Shown: positions 7,280 through 63,187, numbered from the stretch's first letter. The stretch is 64,000 bases of DNA from Dehalococcoidia bacterium (GCA_965221295.1 OZ244879.1:1041603-1105602), one strand, 5' to 3'. Numbers and translations are program-made. Notes: generated by a model not told the origin, from the sequence alone.

Positions 7280-8614
7280 CTAAATGGTTTGGCCGGTGAA
7301 GCGCCAGTTGGTCAGCTTAGCCGCCGGGGCGTGAATGGCTACGCCGGCCTCGTTTAGGTTGAGCTGAGGGGAGTTGGACAAGGCTTCGCAGCCGGCCAGC
7401 GCCTCCACGTAACTCTGGGTGAAACGCAGGTTCTTCACGGGAGTGGTCAGTTCGCCGTTTTCGATCAGGAACGTTCCGTCGCGGGTCATGCCGGTCATGA
7501 CGCAACCGCGATTGTGCGCCAAACGGGTGTAGTAGAACCGAGTAATGTAGATGCCGCGGCGCACCGAGGCGATCAGTTGCTCGGTGGTCAAGTCGCCAGG
7601 GCTCAGGAACAGGTTGGTTGCGGTGGGCCCGCCGGTGGCGCCGCGCTGGTGTCCGGTGGAAACCGCGCCGACTTTGGCGGCGGTATAGCTGTTGTGGACC
7701 GGCCCCAGCGCCACGCCGTCTTTGACGATATCCACTCTACTTCTGGGGACGCCCTCGGCGTCGAAGGGCGCCGGCCAGCCGCCGGGGTCCAGGCCGTCGT
7801 CGCGGATGTTCACGGATGGATTCATGGCGGCCTGCCCTTGAACGTCGCGCATCCAACTGCGGCCGTCCTGAACCATGTGGGCGCCCATGCCGTAGAAACT
7901 GAGGGCCTCCAGAAGGTCATGCACGGCGTAGCGCTCCAGCACCACGGGATATTCGCCTAGGTCAAAAGGTTGAGGATTTTGTCCGCGGGCAGCCTTGTCG
8001 ATGGCCTCGTCGGCCAGGGCTTCGGGGTCGATGGCGTCCATGCGCCACCCGCCGCCTTTGGACCAGCCCGCCGAATCTTGGGCGCGGGCGGTGATGAGCA
8101 GGCCGGCGAGGGAGCCGACGTGATAGGCGTCGGCTCCCCGGGTGCTGACCACGGCAACTTCGATGGCGCCGGTGCGATAGAATCCGGCCGCGTCCATGGA
8201 GCGGACGGCGGCTTTACCGCACACCATGCCGACCACGGCGGCCCGCCGGTGGGCGTCGCAGGAAGCCGTCGCGGAGTCGTACGCCGCCACGGACGGAGCC
8301 GGCGATGGTTCGACCAGGCCCGGGAAATCGGGGTCTTCCGGCATCAGCCTGGCGAATTCGGCGGCCTGTTGCATCGCATCGGCCAGACCCTCGGAGGACA
8401 GGTTGTTGGTGACGGCCCGTCCCTGCCGCAGGCCAGTGGCCACCCTGATGTGGGCCACGGCGTCCTGATGGGCCACGTTCTGGTGGATGCGATTGTTGGC
8501 GAAACGTGTCAGCGCCTGATCCGTAACCGACAGATAGATGTCGGCGTCGGAGCCCGGCGGGCAATGGCGGAGGGCTTCAAGCAGCCGCGGGCGGATTTGC
8601 TCCTGGCCCAGCAT
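7280..8614 (-). CDS. pmbA: TldD/PmbA-family metallopeptidase, PmbA-like subunit
   Basis: ORF track gives 7280..8737. I prefer ATG 8614 (MLGQEQIRPRLLEAL...), 6 nt after the tldD stop, because the longer form overlaps tldD. TldD/PmbA-like C-terminal segments (GMTRDGTFLIENGEL, KNLRFTQS). Confidence 0.8.
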   Translation of the reverse strand: MLGQEQIRPRLLEALRHCPPGSDADIYLSVTDQALTRFANNRIHQNVAHQDAVAHIRVATGLRQGRAVTNNLSSEGLADAMQQAAEFARLMPEDPDFPGLVEPSPAPSVAAYDSATASCDAHRRAAVVGMVCGKAAVRSMDAAGFYRTGAIEVAVVSTRGADAYHVGSLAGLLITARAQDSAGWSKGGGWRMDAIDPEALADEAIDKAARGQNPQPFDLGEYPVVLERYAVHDLLEALSFYGMGAHMVQDGRSWMRDVQGQAAMNPSVNIRDDGLDPGGWPAPFDAEGVPRSRVDIVKDGVALGPVHNSYTAAKVGAVSTGHQRGATGGPTATNLFLSPGDLTTEQLIASVRRGIYITRFYYTRLAHNRGCVMTGMTRDGTFLIENGELTTPVKNLRFTQSYVEALAGCEALSNSPQLNLNEAGVAIHAPAAKLTNWRFTGQTI

Positions 8615-16250: not shown

Positions 16251-16415
16251 ATGACCGGTATATTTGCGGGTATAATCGTGATGGTCTTTGCCGCCATCAT
16301 GTATCCCTTCTGGCCGGACTCGGCCTTCTTGGGGAATCTTTGGTCAAGCTTGGTCATGGGCGGTGTTGGGATTTTTACCGTCCTCATCGGTGCTTGGTGG
16401 AATTCCCTGGAATAG
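16251..16415 (+). CDS. small hypothetical membrane protein (54 aa)
   Basis: Below the ORF-track size cutoff. GGAGG at 16241 then the ATG: MTGIFAGIIVMVFAAIMYPFWPDSAFLGNLWSSLVMGGVGIFTVLIGAWWNSLE. Two hydrophobic helices. Confidence 0.45.
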   Translation: MTGIFAGIIVMVFAAIMYPFWPDSAFLGNLWSSLVMGGVGIFTVLIGAWWNSLE

Positions 16416-53743: not shown

Positions 53744-56470
53744 ATGACCACAGCCCCTCCACCGCAAACCGGCGGCGACTTCAGCCCGCGTCCGATTCAG
53801 GACGAAATGCGGGAGTCCTACCTTTCCTACGCGATGTCGGTGATCGTTTCCCGGGCGCTGCCCGACGTTCGGGATGGATTGAAACCGGTGCAGCGGCGCA
53901 TTCTCTACGCCATGCACGACATGGGGATTCGTCCGGGCAGCCAGTACCGGAAGAGCGCGCGCATTGTGGGCGAGGTGTTGGGCAAGTTCCATCCCCATGG
54001 CGATGGGTCGGTGTACGACGCGCTGGTGCGCATGGCGCAACCCTTCACCATGCGGGCGCCGCTGATTGACGGCCAGGGCAACTTCGGCAGCATTGACGGG
54101 GATCCGCCGGCGGCGATGCGATATACGGAGGCGCGCCTCACCGCCATCGCCGATGAGATGCTGGCCGACATCGACCAGCAGACGGTGGACTTCGCCGACA
54201 ACTTCGATGACTCGATCAGGGAACCGCAGGTGCTGCCGTCGAGGATGCCGAACCTGCTGGTGAACGGGTCTTCAGGCATTGCCGTTGGCATGGCCACCAA
54301 CATGCCGCCGCACAACCTGGCGGAAATTTGCGACGCAGTTTGTTACGTGATTGACCACCCGAATTGCGACGTTGACCAATTGATGGAAATCGTGCCCGGC
54401 CCGGACTTCCCGACGGCCGGTCGCATCCGTGGGGTTTCCGGCATTCGCGACATGTACGCCACCGGACGGGGGCGGGTGGTGATGGAGTCCGTCACCGAAA
54501 TCGAGGAAATGCGCAACAATCGGCAGCGCATCGTGGTGAGCGAACTGCCGTTCCAGGTGAACAAGGCGAACCTGGTGGAAAAGATCGCGGGGCTGGTGCG
54601 TGACAAAACGTTGGTGGGCATCAGCGACATACGCGATGAATCCGACCGGCGAGGCATCCGCGTGGTGATCGAGCTGTCGCGGAACGCCCAGGCCACCGTC
54701 ATCCTCAACAACTTGTTCAAGAGAACCGCCTTGCGTCAGTCATTCAACGCCATCATGCTGGCGCTGGTGGATGGACAACCGCAGGAGTTGTCGCTGAAGG
54801 ACCTGATCCGCAACTTCATCCTGCACCGGGAAGAGGTGATTCGACGGCGGACCGAGTATCAGCTGGGCCGAGCGCGGGACCGGGCCCACATTGTGGAGGG
54901 TCTGCTCAAGGCGCTGGACGCCATCGACGCCATCATTGAAACGATTCGCAACAGCCAGGACGTAGAGGCGGCGCGGAACAACTTAGTGCAGGACTTCGAC
55001 CTCACCGAGATACAGGCGCAGGCCATCTTGGACATGCAACTGCGACGGTTGGCGGCGTTGGAGCGTCAGCGGTTGGACGAGGAATACAACGATCTGCTGG
55101 CGACCATCGCCGAGCTGGAAGACCTGCTGGGGAACCCGCAGAAGATCCGCAACGAAATCAAACGGGAGACCCGAGAAGCCAAGCGCAAGCACTCCAACCC
55201 TCGGCGGACGGTGATCCTTGCTGAAGAGCTGCAAGAGCAGTCCATCGAGCAGTTCATCGTGCAGGAGGACGTGGTAGTCACGTTGAGCCAGCGTGGTTAC
55301 ATCAAGCGGGTGCCTATCAACACATATCGCAACCAGCGCCGCGGCGGCAAGGGCGTGCGGGGCGCCAACAACCGCGAAGATGACGCGGTGATGCAGATCG
55401 CGGTGGTCAATACCCACGACCAACTGCTCTTCTTCACCAATAAGGGACGGGTTTACCCGCTCAACGTCTATGAGACGCCGAACGATGCCGGGCGCACAGC
55501 TCGGGGGACACTGCTGGTGAACCTGATTCCGCTGCAACCCAACGAGCAGGTGCAAACGATGCTGCCAGCCAGCAGGGACGAATACAGTCACCTGTACGTC
55601 TTCGCCACGCGCAACGGTCGGGTGAACGCCCTGCGCCCTGGCCAACTGCAGAACTTGAGAAAATCTGGCCTGATTGCCATGAAGATCCAGGACGGCGACG
55701 AGTTGATCGCCGTTCGACCAGTGGCGGGCGACGCGTCCATCGTGCTGGTGACTGAGCAAGGGCAGGCGTTGTTGTGTCCGGTCAACAGCATACCGGAGCG
55801 CAACCGGAATGCCTCTGGCGTGATTGGCATGAGATTCAAGGACGAATACGGCGGCCGAGACCGGGTTGTGGCGATGGACGTGGTGAACAATGCAGAGGAC
55901 GAGTTTCTGCTGGTGGTTAGCGAAAAGGGCTATGGCAAAGCGACTCCCCTGTACAACAGCAAGGGAGAGGCCGTGTATCGCGAAACCAACCGGGGCGGTA
56001 TGGGCGTCAAGACGTTTGCCGTGGACCAGGGCGACAAACCCACCGGCCCGGTGGTGGACGCCAAGGTGGTTAACTCGGCCGAAATGAACGAGGAGGAGGG
56101 CCACGAAGTCTTCATCATCTCGGCGCAAGGCCAGGTGGTCAGGATAAATTTGGCCGAGGTCAAGGTGGTCAACACGCGCCAGACCAAGGGCGTGATCATA
56201 TGGCGTGAACGGGGCGGCGACGACAGCGTGGTGTCCATCTACTGCTTCCGCGCCAACGACTACAGCCAGGATGATCCCACCCGCCAGAATGGCGCGGCGC
56301 CCGCCGGTTCAGCTCTGGCTGAGGCCGAGGTTGTGGCGGCGGTGGCCGACAGTCAGTACGAGGACGAAGAATCTGAAGCAGACCAGGCAGAAATGCCGGA
56401 TGACGCTGACGATGATGGGGACGACGAACAACCCGACGCGCCGTTGAACGGCCAGGGATCACTGCTGTAG
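53744..56470 (+). CDS. gyrA: DNA gyrase subunit A
   Basis: 908 aa. [32 protein letters not shown], active-site [10 protein letters not shown], six-bladed C-terminal domain, acidic tail. Confidence 0.95.
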
Positions 56471-56552
56471 CGCCGCCTCTGAAGTCTGGGGCGGATCAGA
56501 TTTCTGCCCCCGGCGCAGACCAGCCCGAAATGCGGGCGCAGGACGACGACCG

Positions 56553-57233
56553 ATGAAACTACTGATGGTGCACGGTTCGGGCCAGAACGAACTGACCTAC
56601 CACTACCAGACGGCGGCCTTTGCGGAAGCCGACGCGGTGAATTTGCCGGGGCATCCCGATGGCGAACCGAGAGACAGCATCGGCGGGTACGTAGACTGGC
56701 TCCGCGAATACGCGACTGGCAGGGGGTATCCGCCCTTCGTGTTGTTCGGACACTCGATGGGCGGGGCGATCGCCCTGGACTATGCGCTGCGATTTCCCGG
56801 GGATCTGGCCGGATTGGTTTTGATCGGGACCGGAGCGCGGCTGCGGGTGCACCCCTACTATCTGAACCGATGCCTGGACGAATCCCAGTGGAGGGCAGAG
56901 GCTCCGGGATATTACGAGGCAATCAATCGAGAGATGGCGCCCCAACTGACCGCTAGGGCGTTACAGTCTGGGCCGATGGTGGAGCACAACGACCTGTCGT
57001 GTTGCGACAAATTCGACGTCATGGATCGGGTCAAGGAAATCGGCGTCCCGAGCCTGGTGGTGGTCGGCGCCGACGACGTGATGACTCCGGTGCGTTACGC
57101 GGAATACCTGGGCCGGGAATTGCCGGACGCCGAAGTGGTGGTTGTACCCAATTCCGGCCATTTCGTAACGCTCGAGCAGCCGGATCAGGTCAACGCGGCG
57201 GTGGCGCGGTTTTTGGAACGGCTGGGCAGGTGA
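56553..57233 (+). CDS. alpha/beta-fold hydrolase
   Basis: 226 aa. MKLLMVHGSG, nucleophile elbow GHSMGG, C-terminal GHF. Confidence 0.8.
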   Translation: MKLLMVHGSGQNELTYHYQTAAFAEADAVNLPGHPDGEPRDSIGGYVDWLREYATGRGYPPFVLFGHSMGGAIALDYALRFPGDLAGLVLIGTGARLRVHPYYLNRCLDESQWRAEAPGYYEAINREMAPQLTARALQSGPMVEHNDLSCCDKFDVMDRVKEIGVPSLVVVGADDVMTPVRYAEYLGRELPDAEVVVVPNSGHFVTLEQPDQVNAAVARFLERLGR

Positions 57234-57359
57234 CCGGGCGGGCGTCCGGTCTGGGCGATGAGTCGTTTCGAGATGCGGTTTCGCCTCCGTGATCGCGAGA
57301 AGCAACGGGGAGCGGGCAACACCGCGTCGATGCGAACGCCCGGCAAAGGAGCGGAGCCA

Positions 57360-58215
57360 AGGGTCGTTAGTTGTGGTCAACGAGATTGCCGCGCTACGCT
57401 CGCAATGACAGGAAGAGGGGGCTCGCAATGGCAGTGAGGGGGCGCAGCGATGGCTGGGTGAGGGCAAATGGTCGTTAGTTGCGGTCAACGGGATTGCCGC
57501 GCTGCGCTCGCAATGACAGGAAGAGGGCCAGGAGAGAGGAAGGGCCTACGCAGCGCCTCCCTCGACTGTCATTGCGAGGCCGGAGGCCGTGGCAATCTCG
57601 ACGCCTGGGCGAACGGCCGCTGGGCGGCGATGCCGAACGGCAGTCCGCTGCGAACAACGGGATTGCCGCGCTACGCTCGCAATGACAGGAAGAGGGCCAG
57701 GACACAGGCAGGGCCTACGCAGCGCCTCCCTCGACTGTCATTGCGAGGCCGGAGGCCGTGGCAATCTCGACGCTTGGGCGAACGGCCGCTGGGCGGCGAT
57801 GCCGAACGGCCGTCCGCTGCGAACAACGGGATTGCCGCGCTACGCTCGCAATGACAGGGAGAGGGCCAGGACACAGGAAGGGCCTACGCAGCGCCTCCCT
57901 CGACTGTCATTGCGAGGCCGGAGGCCGTGGCAATCTCGACGCCTGGGCGAACGGCCGCTGGGCGGCGATGCCGAACGGCAGTCCGCTGTGATCAACGAGA
58001 TTGCCGCGCTTCGCTCGCAATGACAGTAGAGAGGAGCTCGCAATGGTAGTAAGAGGGCGGTCGCAATGACAGTAGAGAGGGGCTCGCAATGGTAGTAAGA
58101 GGGCGGTCGCAATGACAGTAGAGAGGGGCTCGCAATGGTAGTAAGCGGGCGCTGGGGATGGCAGGGTGGGGACGGTCGCAATGACTGGAATGAGCGCCGG
58201 CGATGGTAGGGTGAA
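57360..58215. repeat. intergenic hairpin-repeat array 8 (169-bp composite unit: forward type B plus inverted type A; 52-nt tail units)
   Basis: Type B at 57382, 57490, 57659, 57828 and 57997. Inverted type A (CTGTCATTGCGAGGCCGGAGGCCGTGGCAATCTCGAC) at 57566, 57735 and 57904 (169-bp period). 58020-58160 holds about 2.7 copies of a 52-nt double submodule. Confidence 0.95.
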
Positions 58216-58278
58216 GGCGCGCGTGGCGACCACTTGCGCCGGCGCGGTTATTTTTGTAGCGTAACGGCGACTTAGCTC

Positions 58279-60501
58279 ATGAACCGGCAAAATTACGCAC
58301 CCGACGCGCATCGGCTGGTGGCATCGCTGCCGGCAATTTACGCCGGGCGCCCCGACGCCCAGGGGTTGCCGGTGGCTCGCCGCGTGGCGAGGATCGCCGC
58401 GGATTTGCTGTTGACCGAACCAGAAGCGGAGCCGGCCGTGGTGAACGTGGCCGCATTGTTCCATCTGGCTGGTGGCGGCGACCACTCTGATCAGGCCGAG
58501 ACGTCCGCCGCCATTGCCGCCGCCTGGTTGAGGGGAGCTGGCGCCCCGGAATCCTTTGTGGCGGCGACGCGTTGCGCCATATTGGGCGCTTGGGGTTACG
58601 GCGAAACCGACGCAAACGGCAAACTGGTGTGGCACGCGGTCCAACTGGATCTCACCAGCGTGGAGAGGCACTCCGATTACCATAGGGACACTCCGGCGGA
58701 GCCCAGAGCCAGGGGCAGCTACCTGTTCGCCTACCGGGAGGAATGCCTGACGCCGTGCCTTGGATTGCGCGACCTGCTGACGATGCCGGCGGCGAGAACG
58801 ATGTATGAAGAGCGGATGCCGCGACTGGCGGCGTGGTTGGACGAACAGGATCCGGCTTTGGTTCCCGCCGATTGGCGCCGCCTGTCGCAAGTGGCGGATG
58901 TATCCCGCGGCGTGACGCGCTTGCTGGACGGTGAAGACCCGGAGCAGGTGCGCTCCGAGATGCCGCTGGGCGGGTTGCCATACGTCGAGTATCGAGGCAA
59001 GCAGCGCGCCATCATCGCCCGAAGCCACGAGCGGATTTTGGAGTTGACGCACGAACGTATCGAAGCGTCGCGCAACGTGGCGGCGGAAAAATACCTGGAG
59101 AGCGACACCATCCACAAGCCGGCGGTGGAGGAGAACCTGTTCGTGCAGGCGCGCCGCCAGGCCCGGCGGTTGGGCTTGGCGGCGTCCACGGCGGAGGACA
59201 TCGCCCGGCTGCTGTTGTCCAACGCCAGGGAGGTTCAGGAACGCACGCTCAACGACATCGCGCAGCGCTTGAGCCGTTTGCACGGTCGGATCCTGGACGC
59301 CGACTCTCCGGAGACGCGCACCGAAGAAGCGGACATCGCCATCCCATCGCTGGTGGTGCGAACCGGCGACCAGCCGCTGGCCCGCGAGAATGAATTGATC
59401 AAGGAGTTGCGTGTAACGGGGCTCAATGAAGCCTACCCGGAACAGCGTGAGCGGTTCGCCCAATGGTTCCAGGAACCGCATCCCTACATCTTGACCGGCC
59501 AGATCGTGGGCAGTCGAGACGCGGATCTGTTCATGCAGGCCCTGACGGATGGCCAGCGGTGTCGAGTGGTTGTCACCATGTTGGCGGACGGGCCGACCCA
59601 TCTGGGGCACGGCGCGGTCGGCAAGTTACTGGCGTTCTTCCAATCGCGGGGAGCGGAAGTGTCGCTGGGGTTCCGGGAGGTTGGGGTTCCCCGAACGGAG
59701 GCAAGGCGCAACGTCGCGGAGCGGTTGCTGAGCCTGGCGGCCGACGGTCTCGACCTGGCGCGGGTGGACGCGTACCTGCAGCCGGACCGGCGCGACGTGG
59801 TGGAAACCGCTTTTCAGCTGGGCGAAGCGACGCCGCTCAGCGTCCTCAACTCCGCGTTGGGACTGCGATTGAACAGCAGCGCCACCGAGACGTTTTTGCC
59901 GCTGCTTCGGCTGGCCGACATGCTGAACGTTCAGCAGCCGGAGATGGGAGGGCCGTGTCGCACACTGGTAATCGACAGCATCGGGGGCGACGTGTACGTG
60001 CGCATGGCGCGCAACATCGCCGAACGGTTTGGGTTCTTCAAGCCCTCGGCGTTGTACCTGCGGATGATGCGGAGCTTGACTACCTACGACGATCCGTCCA
60101 CGGGCAGCGCCGTGGAAGTGATGACCAATGAGGTGCCGCAAGGCCGCGTCGCCTATGGGGACGCCACCGAGGACATCCGGCGGCGCATTGCGCGGGCGTA
60201 CACCGGAGGTCGGAAGACGCTTGAAGAGCAGCGCAACTTGGGCGGCAACCCCGACCCTCGGGTTTGCAGCGTGTCCAGCCTCCATGCCTTCCACTGCGCG
60301 CCGGATGCCGAAACGTATGCCGAGTTGCAGCGGCGATGCCGGGCTGGGCAGCTACTGTGCGGCGAGTGCAAGTCCGACGCCGCGGACAAACTGCTAGAAT
60401 ACCTCCGCCAGCATCGAGAGTTGCGAGAACGGCTACCGGCGACCGTGGTGGAACGCGCCGGGGCATTGGCGGGAATTTCCAAAGGCGAAGAACCGGAATG
60501 A
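58279..60501 (+). CDS. tryptophanyl-tRNA-synthetase-like paralog with ~400-aa N-terminal extension (function unknown)
   Basis: 740 aa. Residues ~403-720 align by eye with the trpS product next door: ILTG, THLGH (HIGH), LLRLADML vs ISQAADIL, IGGDV vs VGEDQ, ARNIAERFG vs TRNVARRFN. The KMSKS position reads VMTNE. Cys cluster C663-x9-C673-x13-C687-x6-C694-x2-C697. Confidence 0.8.
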   Translation: MNRQNYAPDAHRLVASLPAIYAGRPDAQGLPVARRVARIAADLLLTEPEAEPAVVNVAALFHLAGGGDHSDQAETSAAIAAAWLRGAGAPESFVAATRCAILGAWGYGETDANGKLVWHAVQLDLTSVERHSDYHRDTPAEPRARGSYLFAYREECLTPCLGLRDLLTMPAARTMYEERMPRLAAWLDEQDPALVPADWRRLSQVADVSRGVTRLLDGEDPEQVRSEMPLGGLPYVEYRGKQRAIIARSHERILELTHERIEASRNVAAEKYLESDTIHKPAVEENLFVQARRQARRLGLAASTAEDIARLLLSNAREVQERTLNDIAQRLSRLHGRILDADSPETRTEEADIAIPSLVVRTGDQPLARENELIKELRVTGLNEAYPEQRERFAQWFQEPHPYILTGQIVGSRDADLFMQALTDGQRCRVVVTMLADGPTHLGHGAVGKLLAFFQSRGAEVSLGFREVGVPRTEARRNVAERLLSLAADGLDLARVDAYLQPDRRDVVETAFQLGEATPLSVLNSALGLRLNSSATETFLPLLRLADMLNVQQPEMGGPCRTLVIDSIGGDVYVRMARNIAERFGFFKPSALYLRMMRSLTTYDDPSTGSAVEVMTNEVPQGRVAYGDATEDIRRRIARAYTGGRKTLEEQRNLGGNPDPRVCSVSSLHAFHCAPDAETYAELQRRCRAGQLLCGECKSDAADKLLEYLRQHRELRERLPATVVERAGALAGISKGEEPE

Positions 60502-60612
60502 AGGAGCAGTTCCTGAATCGGAGCGGAACGCCAATGTGGACACGCCGGGTTGCGTAGCCGAGCTCGGGCCCGCCGGCGGGCGTCCCAACCAAGACCAGGA
60601 GACCGAAAGGCA

Positions 60613-61629
60613 ATGGCTGATCAGCAAAGAATTCTCACGGGTATGCGCCCCACCGGGCAACTGCACCTGGGCCACTATCTGGGGGCGTTGGAGAACTGGA
60701 TCCAGATGGAGCACGAATACGAGTGCTTTTTCCTGATCGCGGATTACCAGGCGATGGGAGACCACCTGGACGACATTGGCCTGATCCGTCGTTCGGTGAT
60801 TGAAGTGGCCAGCGACTGGCTGGCGGTTGGGTTGGATCCAGAAAAGTCGTCCTTTGTGATTCAAAGTTACGTGCCGGAACACGCCGAATTGGCAATGTAC
60901 TTTTCGATGCTGATGCCACTGAATCAGCACCAGAAGAATCCCACGTTGCGGGCGGAAACCGCGCAACTGGAAGCGGAGCGGCAGTCCATTTCGTTGGGTT
61001 TCTTCAACTATCCAATCAGCCAGGCCGCCGACATCCTGCTGCCCAAGGCGCACCTGGTTCCGGTGGGCGAGGACCAGGTGCCGCACATCGAGTACACGCG
61101 AAACGTGGCGAGGCGATTCAACCGTCTGTACGGCGAGGTATTTCCGATTCCCCGGGCGCGGGTGGGCCGAGTGCCCAGGCTGGTGGGAACCGACGGTCAG
61201 GCCAAGATGAGCAAGAGCCTCAACAACACCATATACTTAGCCGACGACCCGCAAACCGTGGCCAGCCGGGTGCAGCGCATGGTAACCGACATTACGGGCG
61301 AGAACCCGCGCCTACGCGCCACTGATCCCGGCGTGGTGGAATACAACCCAGCGTTCTTGTACCACGATGCCTTCAACGACAACCAAGATGAGGTGGCGGA
61401 GCTCAAAGAACGCTACACCGCTGGCGCGGTCAGCGACCGAGAGGTAAAAGAACGGTTGACCGAAGCGATCAACCGCTTCTTGGAACCCATTCGGGAGCGG
61501 CGGGCATGGTACGAAAAGCGTCCTGACTACGTGCGGGACGTACTGCTGTCCGGCACGAAACGGGAACGCGCCATCGCCCAACAGACAATGTCGGACGTTA
61601 GGGAAGCCATGCAGGTGGTGTACACCTGA
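60613..61629 (+). CDS. trpS: tryptophan--tRNA ligase
   Basis: ATG 60613 (MADQQRILTGMRPTGQLHLGHYLG; track start 60550). HIGH motif HLGH, KMSKS present (GQAKMSKSLNN). Confidence 0.9.
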   Translation: MADQQRILTGMRPTGQLHLGHYLGALENWIQMEHEYECFFLIADYQAMGDHLDDIGLIRRSVIEVASDWLAVGLDPEKSSFVIQSYVPEHAELAMYFSMLMPLNQHQKNPTLRAETAQLEAERQSISLGFFNYPISQAADILLPKAHLVPVGEDQVPHIEYTRNVARRFNRLYGEVFPIPRARVGRVPRLVGTDGQAKMSKSLNNTIYLADDPQTVASRVQRMVTDITGENPRLRATDPGVVEYNPAFLYHDAFNDNQDEVAELKERYTAGAVSDREVKERLTEAINRFLEPIRERRAWYEKRPDYVRDVLLSGTKRERAIAQQTMSDVREAMQVVYT

Positions 61630-62098
61630 GCCGAAGATGGACATGACCTGCCCTCGATAAAACGCCAATGGACCCCAACGCTGGAACTTTGCCCACGACA
61701 TCGCTGGCGCTCGAGATGTTCTAGGCAGGTGGTCATGCGGGAGCTTTCCGGGTCGGACGGCGCCCAAGATCGGGAACCTGCAAGGCCAGACCAGCGCCTG
61801 GCCATTCCCGCTTGAAAACCCGGTTATGGGCGTAGCTGCGACCTGGCGACCACATGGCAGTTGGGTAATGAACGCATCACATTTGGATCATGACCGCCTC
61901 GGTGTGATGGTGGACGAGGCCCAGGAATGGGCCTGGACGCCAACCCCGCGAGCGCGCTGAGGATCGCGGCGTTGGGGCGGATTCTGGGCAGCATTGGCGA
62001 ATCGGGCAGGCGATACTGCCCAGCTTCTGCTCCAGACGTTTTGCGGGCGGGCCGGTCGCTGATGGTGTACACTTGAATCGGCAGTTTGGAAATTTGGA

Positions 62099-63187
62099 TT
62101 GAGCGACGCGATGGCGACCGAGGAAATCACCACCTTCGAGGATCTGGTTGGTCTGCTGGAACGCAACCCTGAGTATCGGGAGAGATTGCACCGGATCATG
62201 TTGGACGATGAATTCCTGCAGCTGCCAACGCAGGTCCGCATGTTGCTGGAGACGGCGCAGTCGCAAACCGTCCTCCTGCAGACCGTAGCGCGTACTCAAG
62301 AAGAGCACGGCCGGACGTTGGCGCAGCATTCGCGCACGTTGGAAGAGCATACGGTTACACTGGCGCAACATTCGCGCACGTTGGAAGAGCATACGGTTAC
62401 ACTGGCGCAACATTCGCGCACGTTGGAAGAGCATACGGTTACGCTGGCGCAGCATTCGCTCACGCTGCAGGATCTCACGTTGACGTTGGCGCAGCATTCG
62501 CGCACGTTGGAAGAGCATACGGTCATATTGGCGCAGCATTCGCGGACCCTGGAGCAGCACACGCTGACACTGGCGCAACATACGGGTACTTTAGACGAGC
62601 ACACGCTGACGCTGGCGGAACACTCGCGCATTTTGGCGGAGCATACCGTCAAGCTGGATGACCACGGCCGCAAGTTGGACCGACACGAGAACCAGTTGTC
62701 GCGGCTGTTGGGCGATGAAGCGGAGCGGAGGTTCCGTCGGAACGCTCCGGCATGTTTCAGCCGACTGCTGCGGCGGATCCGCGTTACAGACCGGTTCGCG
62801 CTGGCGGACCTGGCCGACGATGCGGTGGACGCAGGGGTACTTACCGAAGGAGAACAATGTTCGCTGTTGGCGCTGGACCTGGCTATTCACGGTTTGGACC
62901 GCGAAAACCGGCGTCCCAAGCGCCTGGCGATCGAAGTGTCGTCGGGTATCGGAGAGAGCGACATCATGCGGGCATCTGATCGGTCTCGGCTGTTGGAGAA
63001 GCTGACCGGGGATCCGGTGGTACCCGTGGTGGCGGGATACTCCATAGCGTCGGCGTATCGCCAGTTGGCCGAGGACAAAGGCGTTGAGGTGACCGTGGTA
63101 GCGCCGCCGGACGCCGGGGAACCCGAGGAGGAGAATGACCAATCGGCCGCCGAAGTAGTTGCCGAGGGTCAAGTCACGGGCTTCTGA
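62099..63187 (+). CDS. His-rich heptad-repeat coiled-coil protein with C-terminal PD-(D/E)XK-like domain (DUF3782/DUF1626-like, hypothetical)
   Basis: 362 aa (start TTG 62099 or ATG 62111). 19 consecutive LxxHxxT heptads. C-terminal LALDLAIHGLD...RLAIEVSSGIGESDIMRA...VVPVVAGYSI...KGVEV resembles the D...E-x-K/S nuclease core of archaeal/thermophile PD-(D/E)XK proteins fused to coiled coils. Confidence 0.7.
   Translation: MSDAMATEEITTFEDLVGLLERNPEYRERLHRIMLDDEFLQLPTQVRMLLETAQSQTVLLQTVARTQEEHGRTLAQHSRTLEEHTVTLAQHSRTLEEHTVTLAQHSRTLEEHTVTLAQHSLTLQDLTLTLAQHSRTLEEHTVILAQHSRTLEQHTLTLAQHTGTLDEHTLTLAEHSRILAEHTVKLDDHGRKLDRHENQLSRLLGDEAERRFRRNAPACFSRLLRRIRVTDRFALADLADDAVDAGVLTEGEQCSLLALDLAIHGLDRENRRPKRLAIEVSSGIGESDIMRASDRSRLLEKLTGDPVVPVVAGYSIASAYRQLAEDKGVEVTVVAPPDAGEPEEENDQSAAEVVAEGQVTGF
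62318..62654 (+). repeat. in-frame 42-bp (two-heptad) tandem repeat, about 8 copies, inside the coiled-coil gene
   Basis: (C/T)TGGCGCA(G/A)CATTCGCGCACGTTGGAAGAGCATACGGTTACA units start at 62318, 62360, 62402, 62444, 62486, 62528, 62570 and 62612. The first three are almost identical at the DNA level. Confidence 0.9.

Follow-up and report, generated by a model that had tools for sequence, protein, structure and literature searches.

The gene described here occupies positions 58279..60501 on the + strand of a 64,000-nucleotide stretch of Dehalococcoidia bacterium DNA (GCA_965221295.1 OZ244879.1:1041603-1105602; the whole stretch is called the window below), directly upstream of trpS, the gene for tryptophanyl-tRNA synthetase (TrpRS). 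Its product of 740 amino acids (aa) combines three modules, an architecture which we consider solid on the sequence and structural comparisons given below: a degenerate HD fold, a domain of the AroQ chorismate mutase (CM) type, and an archaeal-type TrpRS of the iron-sulfur (Fe-S) subclass. In the last of these, the residues that contact Trp and ATP have been replaced, while the surface that reads the anticodon of tRNA-Trp has been kept. We tentatively propose that this pseudo-synthetase may sense tRNA-Trp (or Trp) and may be coupled to the chorismate mutase module at the branch point between Trp and Phe/Tyr synthesis.

The open reading frame (ORF) is unbroken, as had been claimed by an earlier interpretation made without database searches (the sequence-only reading), and the ratio of nonsynonymous to synonymous substitution rates (dN/dS) of the whole gene is about 0.15. 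Among 5.8 billion proteins searched, 147 were homologues, 64–79% identical and 645–789 aa long. When GTDB was scanned with a single genome for each species, 53 loci were found, several of them located on complete chromosomes. The record titles of all 53 name Dehalococcoidia, Chloroflexota or SAR202; SAR202-type Dehalococcoidia are an abundant marine lineage. A frameshift or mis-assembly joining two separate genes, a frameshift having been named in the sequence-only reading as something that would refute it, was ruled out, as the single frame of 735–790 aa recurs across 147 clusters and 53 species, at full length in more than 117 homologues and on complete chromosomes. Residue counts below have as their denominator 117 family members. 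Column identity is about 95% over residues 241–400 and 70–78% elsewhere. The homologues are named either "hypothetical protein" or, at JGI, "tryptophanyl-tRNA synthetase"; we think that the latter label is wrong.

Residues 354–720 are a xenolog of archaeal-type Fe-S TrpRS, sister to the TrpRS of the Aeropyrum pernix type. Profile searches place the proposed TrpRS kinship of this half well beyond chance (PDB 3a04, E=7e-34; NCBIfam PRK12285.1-2, E=6.5e-51), as does Foldseek (3a04, E=4e-17, TM-score 0.74), and the equivalog cut-offs of NCBIfam are missed by a wide margin (best 173 versus 451 bits; TIGR00233, 82 versus 176.75). The module begins with the N-terminal beta-hairpin and helix of archaeal/eukaryotic-type TrpRS (residues 354–400, 59338..59478), recognized by alignment to human, archaeal and fusion proteins, followed by a Rossmann-fold catalytic domain of the TrpRS type with eroded chemistry (residues 401–639, 59479..60195; PDB and multiple alignments). 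Since the neighbouring trpS product is matched with only 33 bits and 23% identity, compared with 135 bits for the stand-alone archaeal-type protein P0157, an origin by tandem duplication of the adjoining gene was rejected, with which the tree concurs. The sequence-only reading had treated the two genes as kin and aligned them by eye, but the neighbour, being of bacterial type, was the wrong reference. For this reason it mistook a coincidental "ILTG" match for homology, and described as an insertion of about 25 aa between ILTG and the HIGH motif what is the ordinary N-terminal region of archaeal/eukaryotic-type TrpRS.

Residues were mapped onto the genuine Fe-S subclass (3a04, P0156, P0157 and P0160) and human TrpRS (hTrpRS; reference sequence identical to 2quh_A residues 83–471), with the roles of Trp and ATP contacts taken from PMC2831299 and those of tRNA contacts in hTrpRS from PMC1538984. 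The HIGH signature, THLGH, was correctly located at 59596–59610, and its description as intact holds for the window copy but not family-wide: H441 is invariant (117/117), whereas the second His, H444, is kept in 98/117 and replaced in 19/117. The DxE loop is lost, with GFREVGV (59668–59688) at its position. E199, which in the human enzyme forms a salt bridge with the alpha-amino group, corresponds to L, S or G, and members differ by about 30 residues in the length of the loop, a portion of the old active site that seems free to vary. In P0112 and P0141, a 25–30-residue insertion falls exactly at the DxE[KA][FY] substrate-binding loop (window residues ~468–470). Another alpha-amino contact, Q284, is R544 in 114/117 (59908–59910). 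The GxDQD motif reads SIGGDVY (59977–59997), D312 of AIDQ, which binds ribose, being replaced by G569 (115/117) and Q313 by G570 (117/117). The KMSSS loop reads VMTNE (60118–60132): K349 of KMSAS corresponds to V614 (111/117), and the serines S351 and S352 to T616 and N617. The module has thus been deprived of residues binding the amino-acid backbone, the ribose of ATP and the phosphates. Surviving residues of the catalytic motifs are H441, mostly H444, and M615, and the replacement motifs are themselves invariant (GGDV in 117/117, MTN in at least 115/117). The IGGDV and VMTNE segments lie where the sequence-only reading had put them, and its central observation, a TrpRS paralog with degraded class I motifs, is borne out for the KMSKS-type loop, GxDQ and the alpha-amino contacts alike. 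Y159, Q194 and R162 of the Pyrococcus horikoshii/human enzymes were also considered as indicators of Trp-pocket loss and set aside as uninformative, the genuine A. pernix-like subclass already differing at these positions.

While these Trp and ATP contacts were lost, the anticodon surface for tRNA-Trp was kept, as the alignments show and as the sequence-only reading had overlooked. AYTGGRKTLEEQR (residues 640–652, 60196..60234) is the counterpart of the hTrpRS loop enclosing the CCA anticodon and is conserved in at least 115/117 at the contacts of PMC1538984, with T642, G644, R645 and Q651 as the equivalents of human S378, G380, R381 and H387. All eight anticodon-contact positions (T642, G644, R645, Q651, L693, C694, G695 and K698) are identical to those of the genuine subclass, and each is conserved in at least 105/117. 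K698 (116/117) is equivalent to human K431, which contacts C35 and has been described as strictly conserved across all TrpRS (PMC1538984), and C694 and G695 are equivalent to human T427 and G428. The acceptor-arm contact R321 is also retained (R578, 117/117), and the discriminator-reading residues D99, K102 and R106 are replaced by R369, E372 and E376 in all fusion proteins. The cysteines C663, C673, C687, C694 and C697 are where the sequence-only reading had listed them, and the motif C663-x23-C687-x6-C694-x2-C697, followed by K698 (residues 663–698, 60265..60372), fits, as it had suggested, the [4Fe-4S] motif C-x(21-24)-C-x6-C-x2-C of Thermotoga maritima TrpRS (TmTrpRS; PMC2954223). The four motif cysteines are conserved in at least 116/117 and present in 3a04, P0156, P0157 and P0160; the additional C673 is not conserved (A in 82/117). 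The retention of cluster ligands after the loss of catalysis argues that the cluster serves tRNA binding or sensing and not the chemistry of aminoacylation, which bears on a role that has been unexplained since 2010 in those TrpRS that carry a [4Fe-4S] cluster.

The N-terminal 400 aa had been thought to match no family; two domains were found there. The AroQ (type II) CM-like three-helix domain, the most constrained part of the protein, had been overlooked altogether and covers residues 236–340 (58984..59298), as supported by Pfam, a PDB profile search and residue conservation. Pfam CM_2 (PF01817) matches the window copy with a borderline score (E=7.7e-6) and all 40 of 40 sampled family members at E<=1e-3 (best 2.2e-8), and the relatives P0148 (36.6 bits), P0150 (34.9) and P0155 (46.6) pass its cut-off. 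With a profile of the segment, PDB entries 5ts9 (1.7e-7) and Escherichia coli CM (EcCM; 1ecm, 9.4e-6, ungapped alignment) were matched; a PDB search with the single sequence of residues 201–400 gave no CM match, so that the family profile was needed. Seven polar active-site residues, R11', R28, K39, D48, R51, E52 and Q88, have been described as conserved in all CM_2 domains (PMC5526877). In the alignment to 1ecm, five of the seven are kept and invariant: R243 (R11'), R260 (R28), K271 (K39), E284 (E52) and Q320 (Q88), each in 117/117. The other two are changed, D48 to K280 and R51 to V283, as is S84 to A316, again in 117/117. The five retained residues persist in relatives down to about 30% identity. 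An AlphaFold2 (AF2) monomer model predicts helices at 236–272, 280–297 and 302–339, the first of them long; at an offset of 232 these agree with what we take to be the helix boundaries of EcCM. Since the confidence of this model (predicted local distance difference test, pLDDT) is below 50 in the AroQ segment and its predicted TM-score (pTM) is 0.48, AroQ geometry and inter-domain contacts in it are unusable. The domain is followed by a nearly invariant acidic linker, ADSPETRTEEADI (residues 341–353, 59299..59337), also with low pLDDT.

Residues 1–232 (58279..58974) adopt an HD-superfamily fold of the YpgQ type with a degenerate metal site, according to profile, model and structure searches. 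The domain profile matches the HD hydrolases 3dto and 3djb (E ~6e-5), and the AF2 model (pLDDT 88.9) is similar in Foldseek to 2pq7 (TM-score 0.73) and YpgQ (5dqw, 0.68); the sequence-only reading had rightly suspected an HD-like segment without the HD dyad. Pfam HD (PF01966) had no match in this region, and only the fragment P0153 reached 22 bits. With the YpgQ-type HD pyrophosphohydrolases (5dqw, 2pq7, 3dto and 3djb) the module shares the all-helical HD fold (TM-score 0.68–0.73) and the helix pattern around "AALxH" and "LD". Unlike these enzymes, it has Ala33 in place of the first metal-binding His (110/117) and H62-L63 in place of the dyad (L in 112/117), as seen in the HMMER alignment; D124 and H131 are invariant in the family. 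Two of the four HD metal ligands are therefore lost and the metal site is broken. Because Ala33 and Leu63 replace metal ligands, metal-dependent hydrolase activity seems unlikely.

Values of dN/dS were calculated from 213 genome pairs with dS < 1. Within the protein, constraint is strongest on the AroQ module (0.034), followed by the linker and hairpin (0.058), the TrpRS-like module (0.13–0.17) and the HD-like module (0.20), with 0.042 for trpS and 0.041 for gyrA as comparators. No module is decaying, and the constraint on AroQ equals that on essential genes. As a whole, the protein diverges faster than the trpS product (61–79% versus 83–93% identity across the 53 loci).

When 1.84 billion representatives were searched exhaustively with HMMER, the N-terminal 400 aa matched just 18 proteins. 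Two of the relatives, P0151 (536 aa) and P0152 (547 aa), consist of AroQ and TrpRS without the HD module; both are singletons from short contigs, with DxE, GxDQ/GxDH and RMSSS/KMSSG retained, and P0151 passes the TIGR00233 cut-off with 191 bits. A further search, for which a profile was built from the distant fusions, yielded nothing beyond P0151 and ordinary archaeal TrpRS, leaving the two-domain forms as singletons. The closest stand-alone relative of the AroQ module is P0155, a 120-aa CM (46.6 bits) encoded directly upstream of EPSP synthase, which of two further AroQ invariants of the family, K280 and R317, shares R317 alone. The fusion proteins form a single clade in a distance tree (100/100), with the two-domain forms basal, and fall inside the archaeal/eukaryotic-type TrpRS nearest the A. 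pernix-like Fe-S group (59/100). Since the basal two-domain forms have intact motifs, it is likely that AroQ first joined an active Fe-S TrpRS, and that the HD module was gained and the chemistry lost later, in a lineage possessing a bacterial trpS. With motifs intact in its two-domain members and dead in its three-domain members, the family provides a natural series for the change from aminoacyl-tRNA synthetase (aaRS) to regulator. P0151 is flanked (L055, 2114–3459), in convergent orientation, by genes of the Rv2949c-like (chorismate pyruvate-lyase) and VitK2_biosynth (MqnA-type, futalosine pathway) families, both of which use chorismate.

The canonical bacterial-type trpS (338 aa, 60613..61629, + strand) starts 111 nt past the paralog stop, scores 298 bits on TIGR00233 against a cut-off of 176.75, and has HLGH, GEDQ and KMSKS and a single Cys, in agreement with the sequence-only reading, which had noted a canonical copy at this distance without the Cys motif. 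Its suggestion that the gene pair be checked for conservation proved fruitful: trpS lies directly downstream of the paralog in 52 of the 53 loci, about 10 of which lack the upstream gyrA/hydrolase genes, and the distant three-domain relatives P0148 (~39% identity) and P0141 (~50%) are also followed by a 337–338-aa protein of the class I W/Y synthetase family, which next to P0148 scores 251 bits on TIGR00233. L043, the sole locus of the 53 without trpS within 6 kb downstream, also holds the most divergent member (61% identity).

Depending on the locus, 2 to about 900 nt separate the paralog from trpS, and this spacer often holds two small ORFs. In 18 loci these are hydrophobic (53 and 61 aa in L014, where the pair lies at 8223–8571) and separated by gaps of 1–2 nt, which is operon-like packing. 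The first (~53 aa) has "MKEFFLNHICTTPPYTVASCEYQY" and a hydrophobic stretch resembling one transmembrane helix, the second (~61 aa) has two hydrophobic stretches, and Pfam assigned neither to a family. Of these ORFs the window retains only a 19-codon remnant of one, a small membrane-protein ORF, MKEQFLNRSGTPMWTRRVA* (60498..60557, + strand), with an ATG that overlaps the paralog stop (ATGA). About 45 nt upstream of the paralog start, nearly all loci (L002–L054) have a box, TTGCTGGTAT[TCG]ATG (e.g. L014 ~5940), which is readable as an extended -10 promoter and is present irrespective of which gene lies upstream. Upstream of the window's paralog the box had no match, its sole match with at most 2 mismatches being at 16264, which is chance level. 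The window has instead, at 57486–58151, two arrays, one a tandem repeat of 169 bp (3.2 copies, 95% match) and the other with units of 23/46 bp (5.4 and 3.0 copies), which fill the spacer of about 1 kb between an alpha/beta-hydrolase gene and the paralog; this spacer is about 65–150 nt in most related loci and longer in three. The arrays look like an insertion specific to the window genome, which has displaced or degraded the conserved -10-like box. A simple promoter scan of the window gave nothing, and terminator-like sites were at chance level.

A conserved structured leader or tRNA mimic was rejected as a candidate, the upstream alignment conserving only the extended -10-like box; the leader from this box to the ATG varies across loci, as does the spacer, on inspection and not by a formal covariation search. 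Rfam models, T-box included, gave nothing at E<=1 in 56400–62200, and at gathering scores in 10 related loci they gave just two unrelated tRNA genes (L028). The window has no tRNA genes, and hence no private tRNA-Trp.

A non-translational role, which the sequence-only reading had suggested, is the most likely reading of these data in general; readings as a resistance enzyme or an auxiliary TrpRS do not fit, the enzymes concerned keeping their catalytic motifs. For the specific form that we tentatively prefer, a sensor of tRNA-Trp coupled to a CM, the steps would be as follows. The TrpRS-like module would have lost charging and would bind tRNA-Trp, its remodelled pocket perhaps also accommodating Trp or another ligand, as a sensor analogous to the HisRS-like modules of HisZ and GCN2. 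The AroQ module would be the output; because it is the most constrained part of the protein, it most likely retains both chorismate binding and conversion to prephenate. How chorismate is divided between the Trp and the Phe/Tyr branches would then be set by the protein in response to the status of tRNA-Trp. As AroQ and TrpRS are both obligate dimers, they could be coupled within a single two-fold dimer. The HD-like module, in which invariant arginines abound, may be an accessory binding domain for a nucleotide or an RNA backbone, and co-transcription with trpS would tie the dose of the sensor to that of the enzyme charging its ligand. The position of P0155 beside EPSP synthase, and of P0151 beside MqnA-type and chorismate-lyase-type genes, is consistent with the proposal. 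A bolder version, with a bacterial logic like that of GCN2, in which the dead Fe-S TrpRS reads the charging of tRNA-Trp and gates the chorismate branch point through the fused AroQ dimer, while redox or nucleotide signals enter through the cluster at the anticodon pocket and through the dead HD domain, we regard as rather unlikely.

Several points weigh against a tRNA-Trp-controlled mutase. Every function assigned here is deduced from sequence. Two of the seven polar AroQ residues are changed (D48 to K280, R51 to V283), so that the domain may catalyse the reaction only weakly or in altered form, and may serve as a sensor instead of a catalyst; the CM_2 score of the window copy, 26.5 bits, is just below the Pfam cut-off of 27, and with pLDDT below 50 for AroQ in the monomer model the coupling of the domains stays a prediction. 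With the alpha-amino contacts gone, the binding of Trp itself is doubtful, and the changed discriminator helix (R369, E372 and E376) makes binding of the acceptor end uncertain. Finally, no aromatic-pathway genes lie within about 20 kb around the gene.

The main rival, in our view a rather improbable one, reverses the roles: AroQ would be a chorismate/prephenate sensor and the pseudo-TrpRS an effector that tunes trpS expression or the availability of tRNA-Trp to the state of the aromatic pathway, its binding partner being tRNA-Trp, the real TrpRS or an element in the operon mRNA that resembles a tRNA. In type I-beta DAHP synthases, a largely regulatory function has been described for AroQ domains even where the polar residues are intact (PMC5526877), and here the D48 and R51 equivalents are changed; trpS linkage is very stable, the operon is tightly packed, the anticodon-binding surface is intact, and in the basal P0151 AroQ sits on an apparently active TrpRS, like a regulatory domain on an enzyme. 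Constraint at the level of gyrA and trpS (dN/dS 0.034) would, however, be unusual for a pure sensor domain. The reading is also disfavoured by the lack of an Rfam element near the pair (none in the window region at E<=1, nor in 10 loci at gathering scores, bar the two unrelated tRNA genes), by a spacer that ranges from 2 to about 900 nt and is often occupied by the two small ORFs, and by the unconserved leader between the -10-like motif and the ATG; a heterodimer of archaeal-type and bacterial-type TrpRS is unlikely at 23% identity. Less probable still is a tRNA-dependent enzyme, in which the dead synthetase docks tRNA-Trp or Trp-tRNA-Trp and the AroQ site supplies or uses chorismate or prephenate, for a modification of the anticodon next to the Fe-S cluster or a reaction on the esterified tryptophan. 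Prephenate is a co-substrate for wobble-uridine modification via CmoA and the TrhP pathway, which counts in favour of such an enzyme. Anticodon and acceptor-arm contacts are kept, the cluster lies at C34 in the TmTrpRS model (PMC2954223), and the pocket, with R544, G569-G570 and M615-T616-N617 invariant, is remodelled and not just decayed. But tRNA-Trp has C34 and not U34, a cluster with four Cys ligands leaves no open iron site for catalysis, Pfam and NCBIfam scans found no S-adenosylmethionine-binding or transferase domain, and no AroQ domain is known to use RNA or an aminoacyl ester as its substrate.

That the protein is after all an active auxiliary TrpRS with unusual motifs, specific for stress, an antibiotic or a tRNA variant, appears highly improbable. 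The largely kept HxGH (H441 117/117, H444 98/117), the intact fold and tRNA contacts, and the JGI label of the homologues would agree with it, but all other conserved Trp and ATP contacts are replaced (E199, Q284, D312, Q313, K349 and the two serines), the DxE loop varies by about 30 residues in length among members, NCBIfam scores fall far below cut-offs (173 versus 451; 82 versus 176.75), known auxiliary TrpRS retain their motifs (PMC9437257), and a canonical, strongly selected trpS is adjacent in 52/53 loci. Least credible of all, to the point that we give it almost no weight, is an artefact or decaying relic, whether frameshift-joined genes or a pseudogene left by duplication. Degraded motifs and an identity of 61–79% against 83–93% for trpS are what a relic might show; the same frame and length, however, recur in more than 117 clusters, 53 species and complete long-read chromosomes, every module is under purifying selection (dN/dS 0.03–0.20), and the "degenerate" motifs are invariant (GGDV 117/117, MTN at least 115/117).

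Among known systems, the closest homologues of the C-terminal module are the archaeal-type [4Fe-4S] TrpRS (A. pernix 3a04, with the Cys motif as in T. maritima 2g36), with which it shares the fold (TM-score 0.74), the N-terminal beta-hairpin, HxGH, the A-x-T-G-G-R...Q-R anticodon loop, C-G-x-C-K and C-x(21-24)-C-x6-C-x2-C. It differs from them in that the DxE loop, the alpha-amino Gln, GxDQ and KMSSS are replaced, about 350 N-terminal residues (HD-like and AroQ) are added, and a bacterial trpS coexists with it. TrpRS II of Deinococcus and the indolmycin-resistant TrpRS of Streptomyces are likewise second TrpRS-family genes in their genomes; unlike the paralog, these duplicates are bacterial-type, active and unfused, and keep HIGH and KMSKS. 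AroQ has been found fused to DAHP synthase as a regulatory or catalytic module (PMC5526877). The AroQ fusions, namely the P- and T-proteins of E. coli and the DAHP synthases of Bacillus subtilis, Listeria and Geobacillus, have in common with the paralog an N-terminal three-helix AroQ, a linker and a larger dimeric enzyme, as well as the R11', R28, K39, E52 and Q88 core, and their AroQ acts as a catalyst or as a chorismate/prephenate sensor. In the paralog, in contrast, the partner is synthetase-like and not a shikimate-pathway enzyme, and the D48/R51 equivalents are K/V.

Pseudo-synthetase sensors are few, yet instructive on how cells read amino-acid and tRNA status. GCN2, with its HisRS-like domain, is one such aaRS-derived analogue. 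The other is HisZ, a HisRS paralog and regulatory subunit of ATP-phosphoribosyltransferase (PMC9437257). Like the proposed sensor, both are non-aminoacylating aaRS copies under selection, with a sensing module that controls an activity tied to the same amino acid. The analogy is one of function and not of homology, their modules being class II HisRS and that of the paralog class I TrpRS. HisZ is moreover a separate subunit without an anticodon-binding domain, whereas the sensor of the paralog would be fused in cis and keeps the anticodon contacts and the Fe-S site, and the partner domain is AroQ instead of HisG (HisZ) or a kinase (GCN2). For TrpRS, a 2022 review (PMC9437257) names no related protein that works outside translation, and in full-text literature searches we found no description of a CM-TrpRS fusion or of such a protein. 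Thus, although aaRS-derived sensor modules are known, we rate the HD-AroQ-pseudo-TrpRS architecture as new. The family pairs a selective loss of Trp and ATP chemistry, with anticodon contacts kept, with the type of enzyme that stands at the Trp versus Phe/Tyr branch point. If the proposed coupling is true, this would be the first tRNA-controlled metabolic enzyme of its kind and the first non-translational TrpRS-like protein, and the status of a tRNA would bear on a metabolic enzyme with no part played by ribosomes, alarmones or transcription factors.

Two other frames in the window were noted. An antisense frame of 567 codons, rich in arginine and proline, is open at 57907–59610 on the - strand; it is of a kind to which high G+C content gives rise, and we do not think that it is a gene. 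The dN/dS and homologue signals belong to the + strand frame. Downstream of trpS, an ORF of 362 aa (62099–63187, + strand) encodes a run of near-identical 14-residue repeats (HSRTLEEHTVTLAQ...); it had no significant Pfam match, and in about half of the related loci trpS is followed by a partial homologue.

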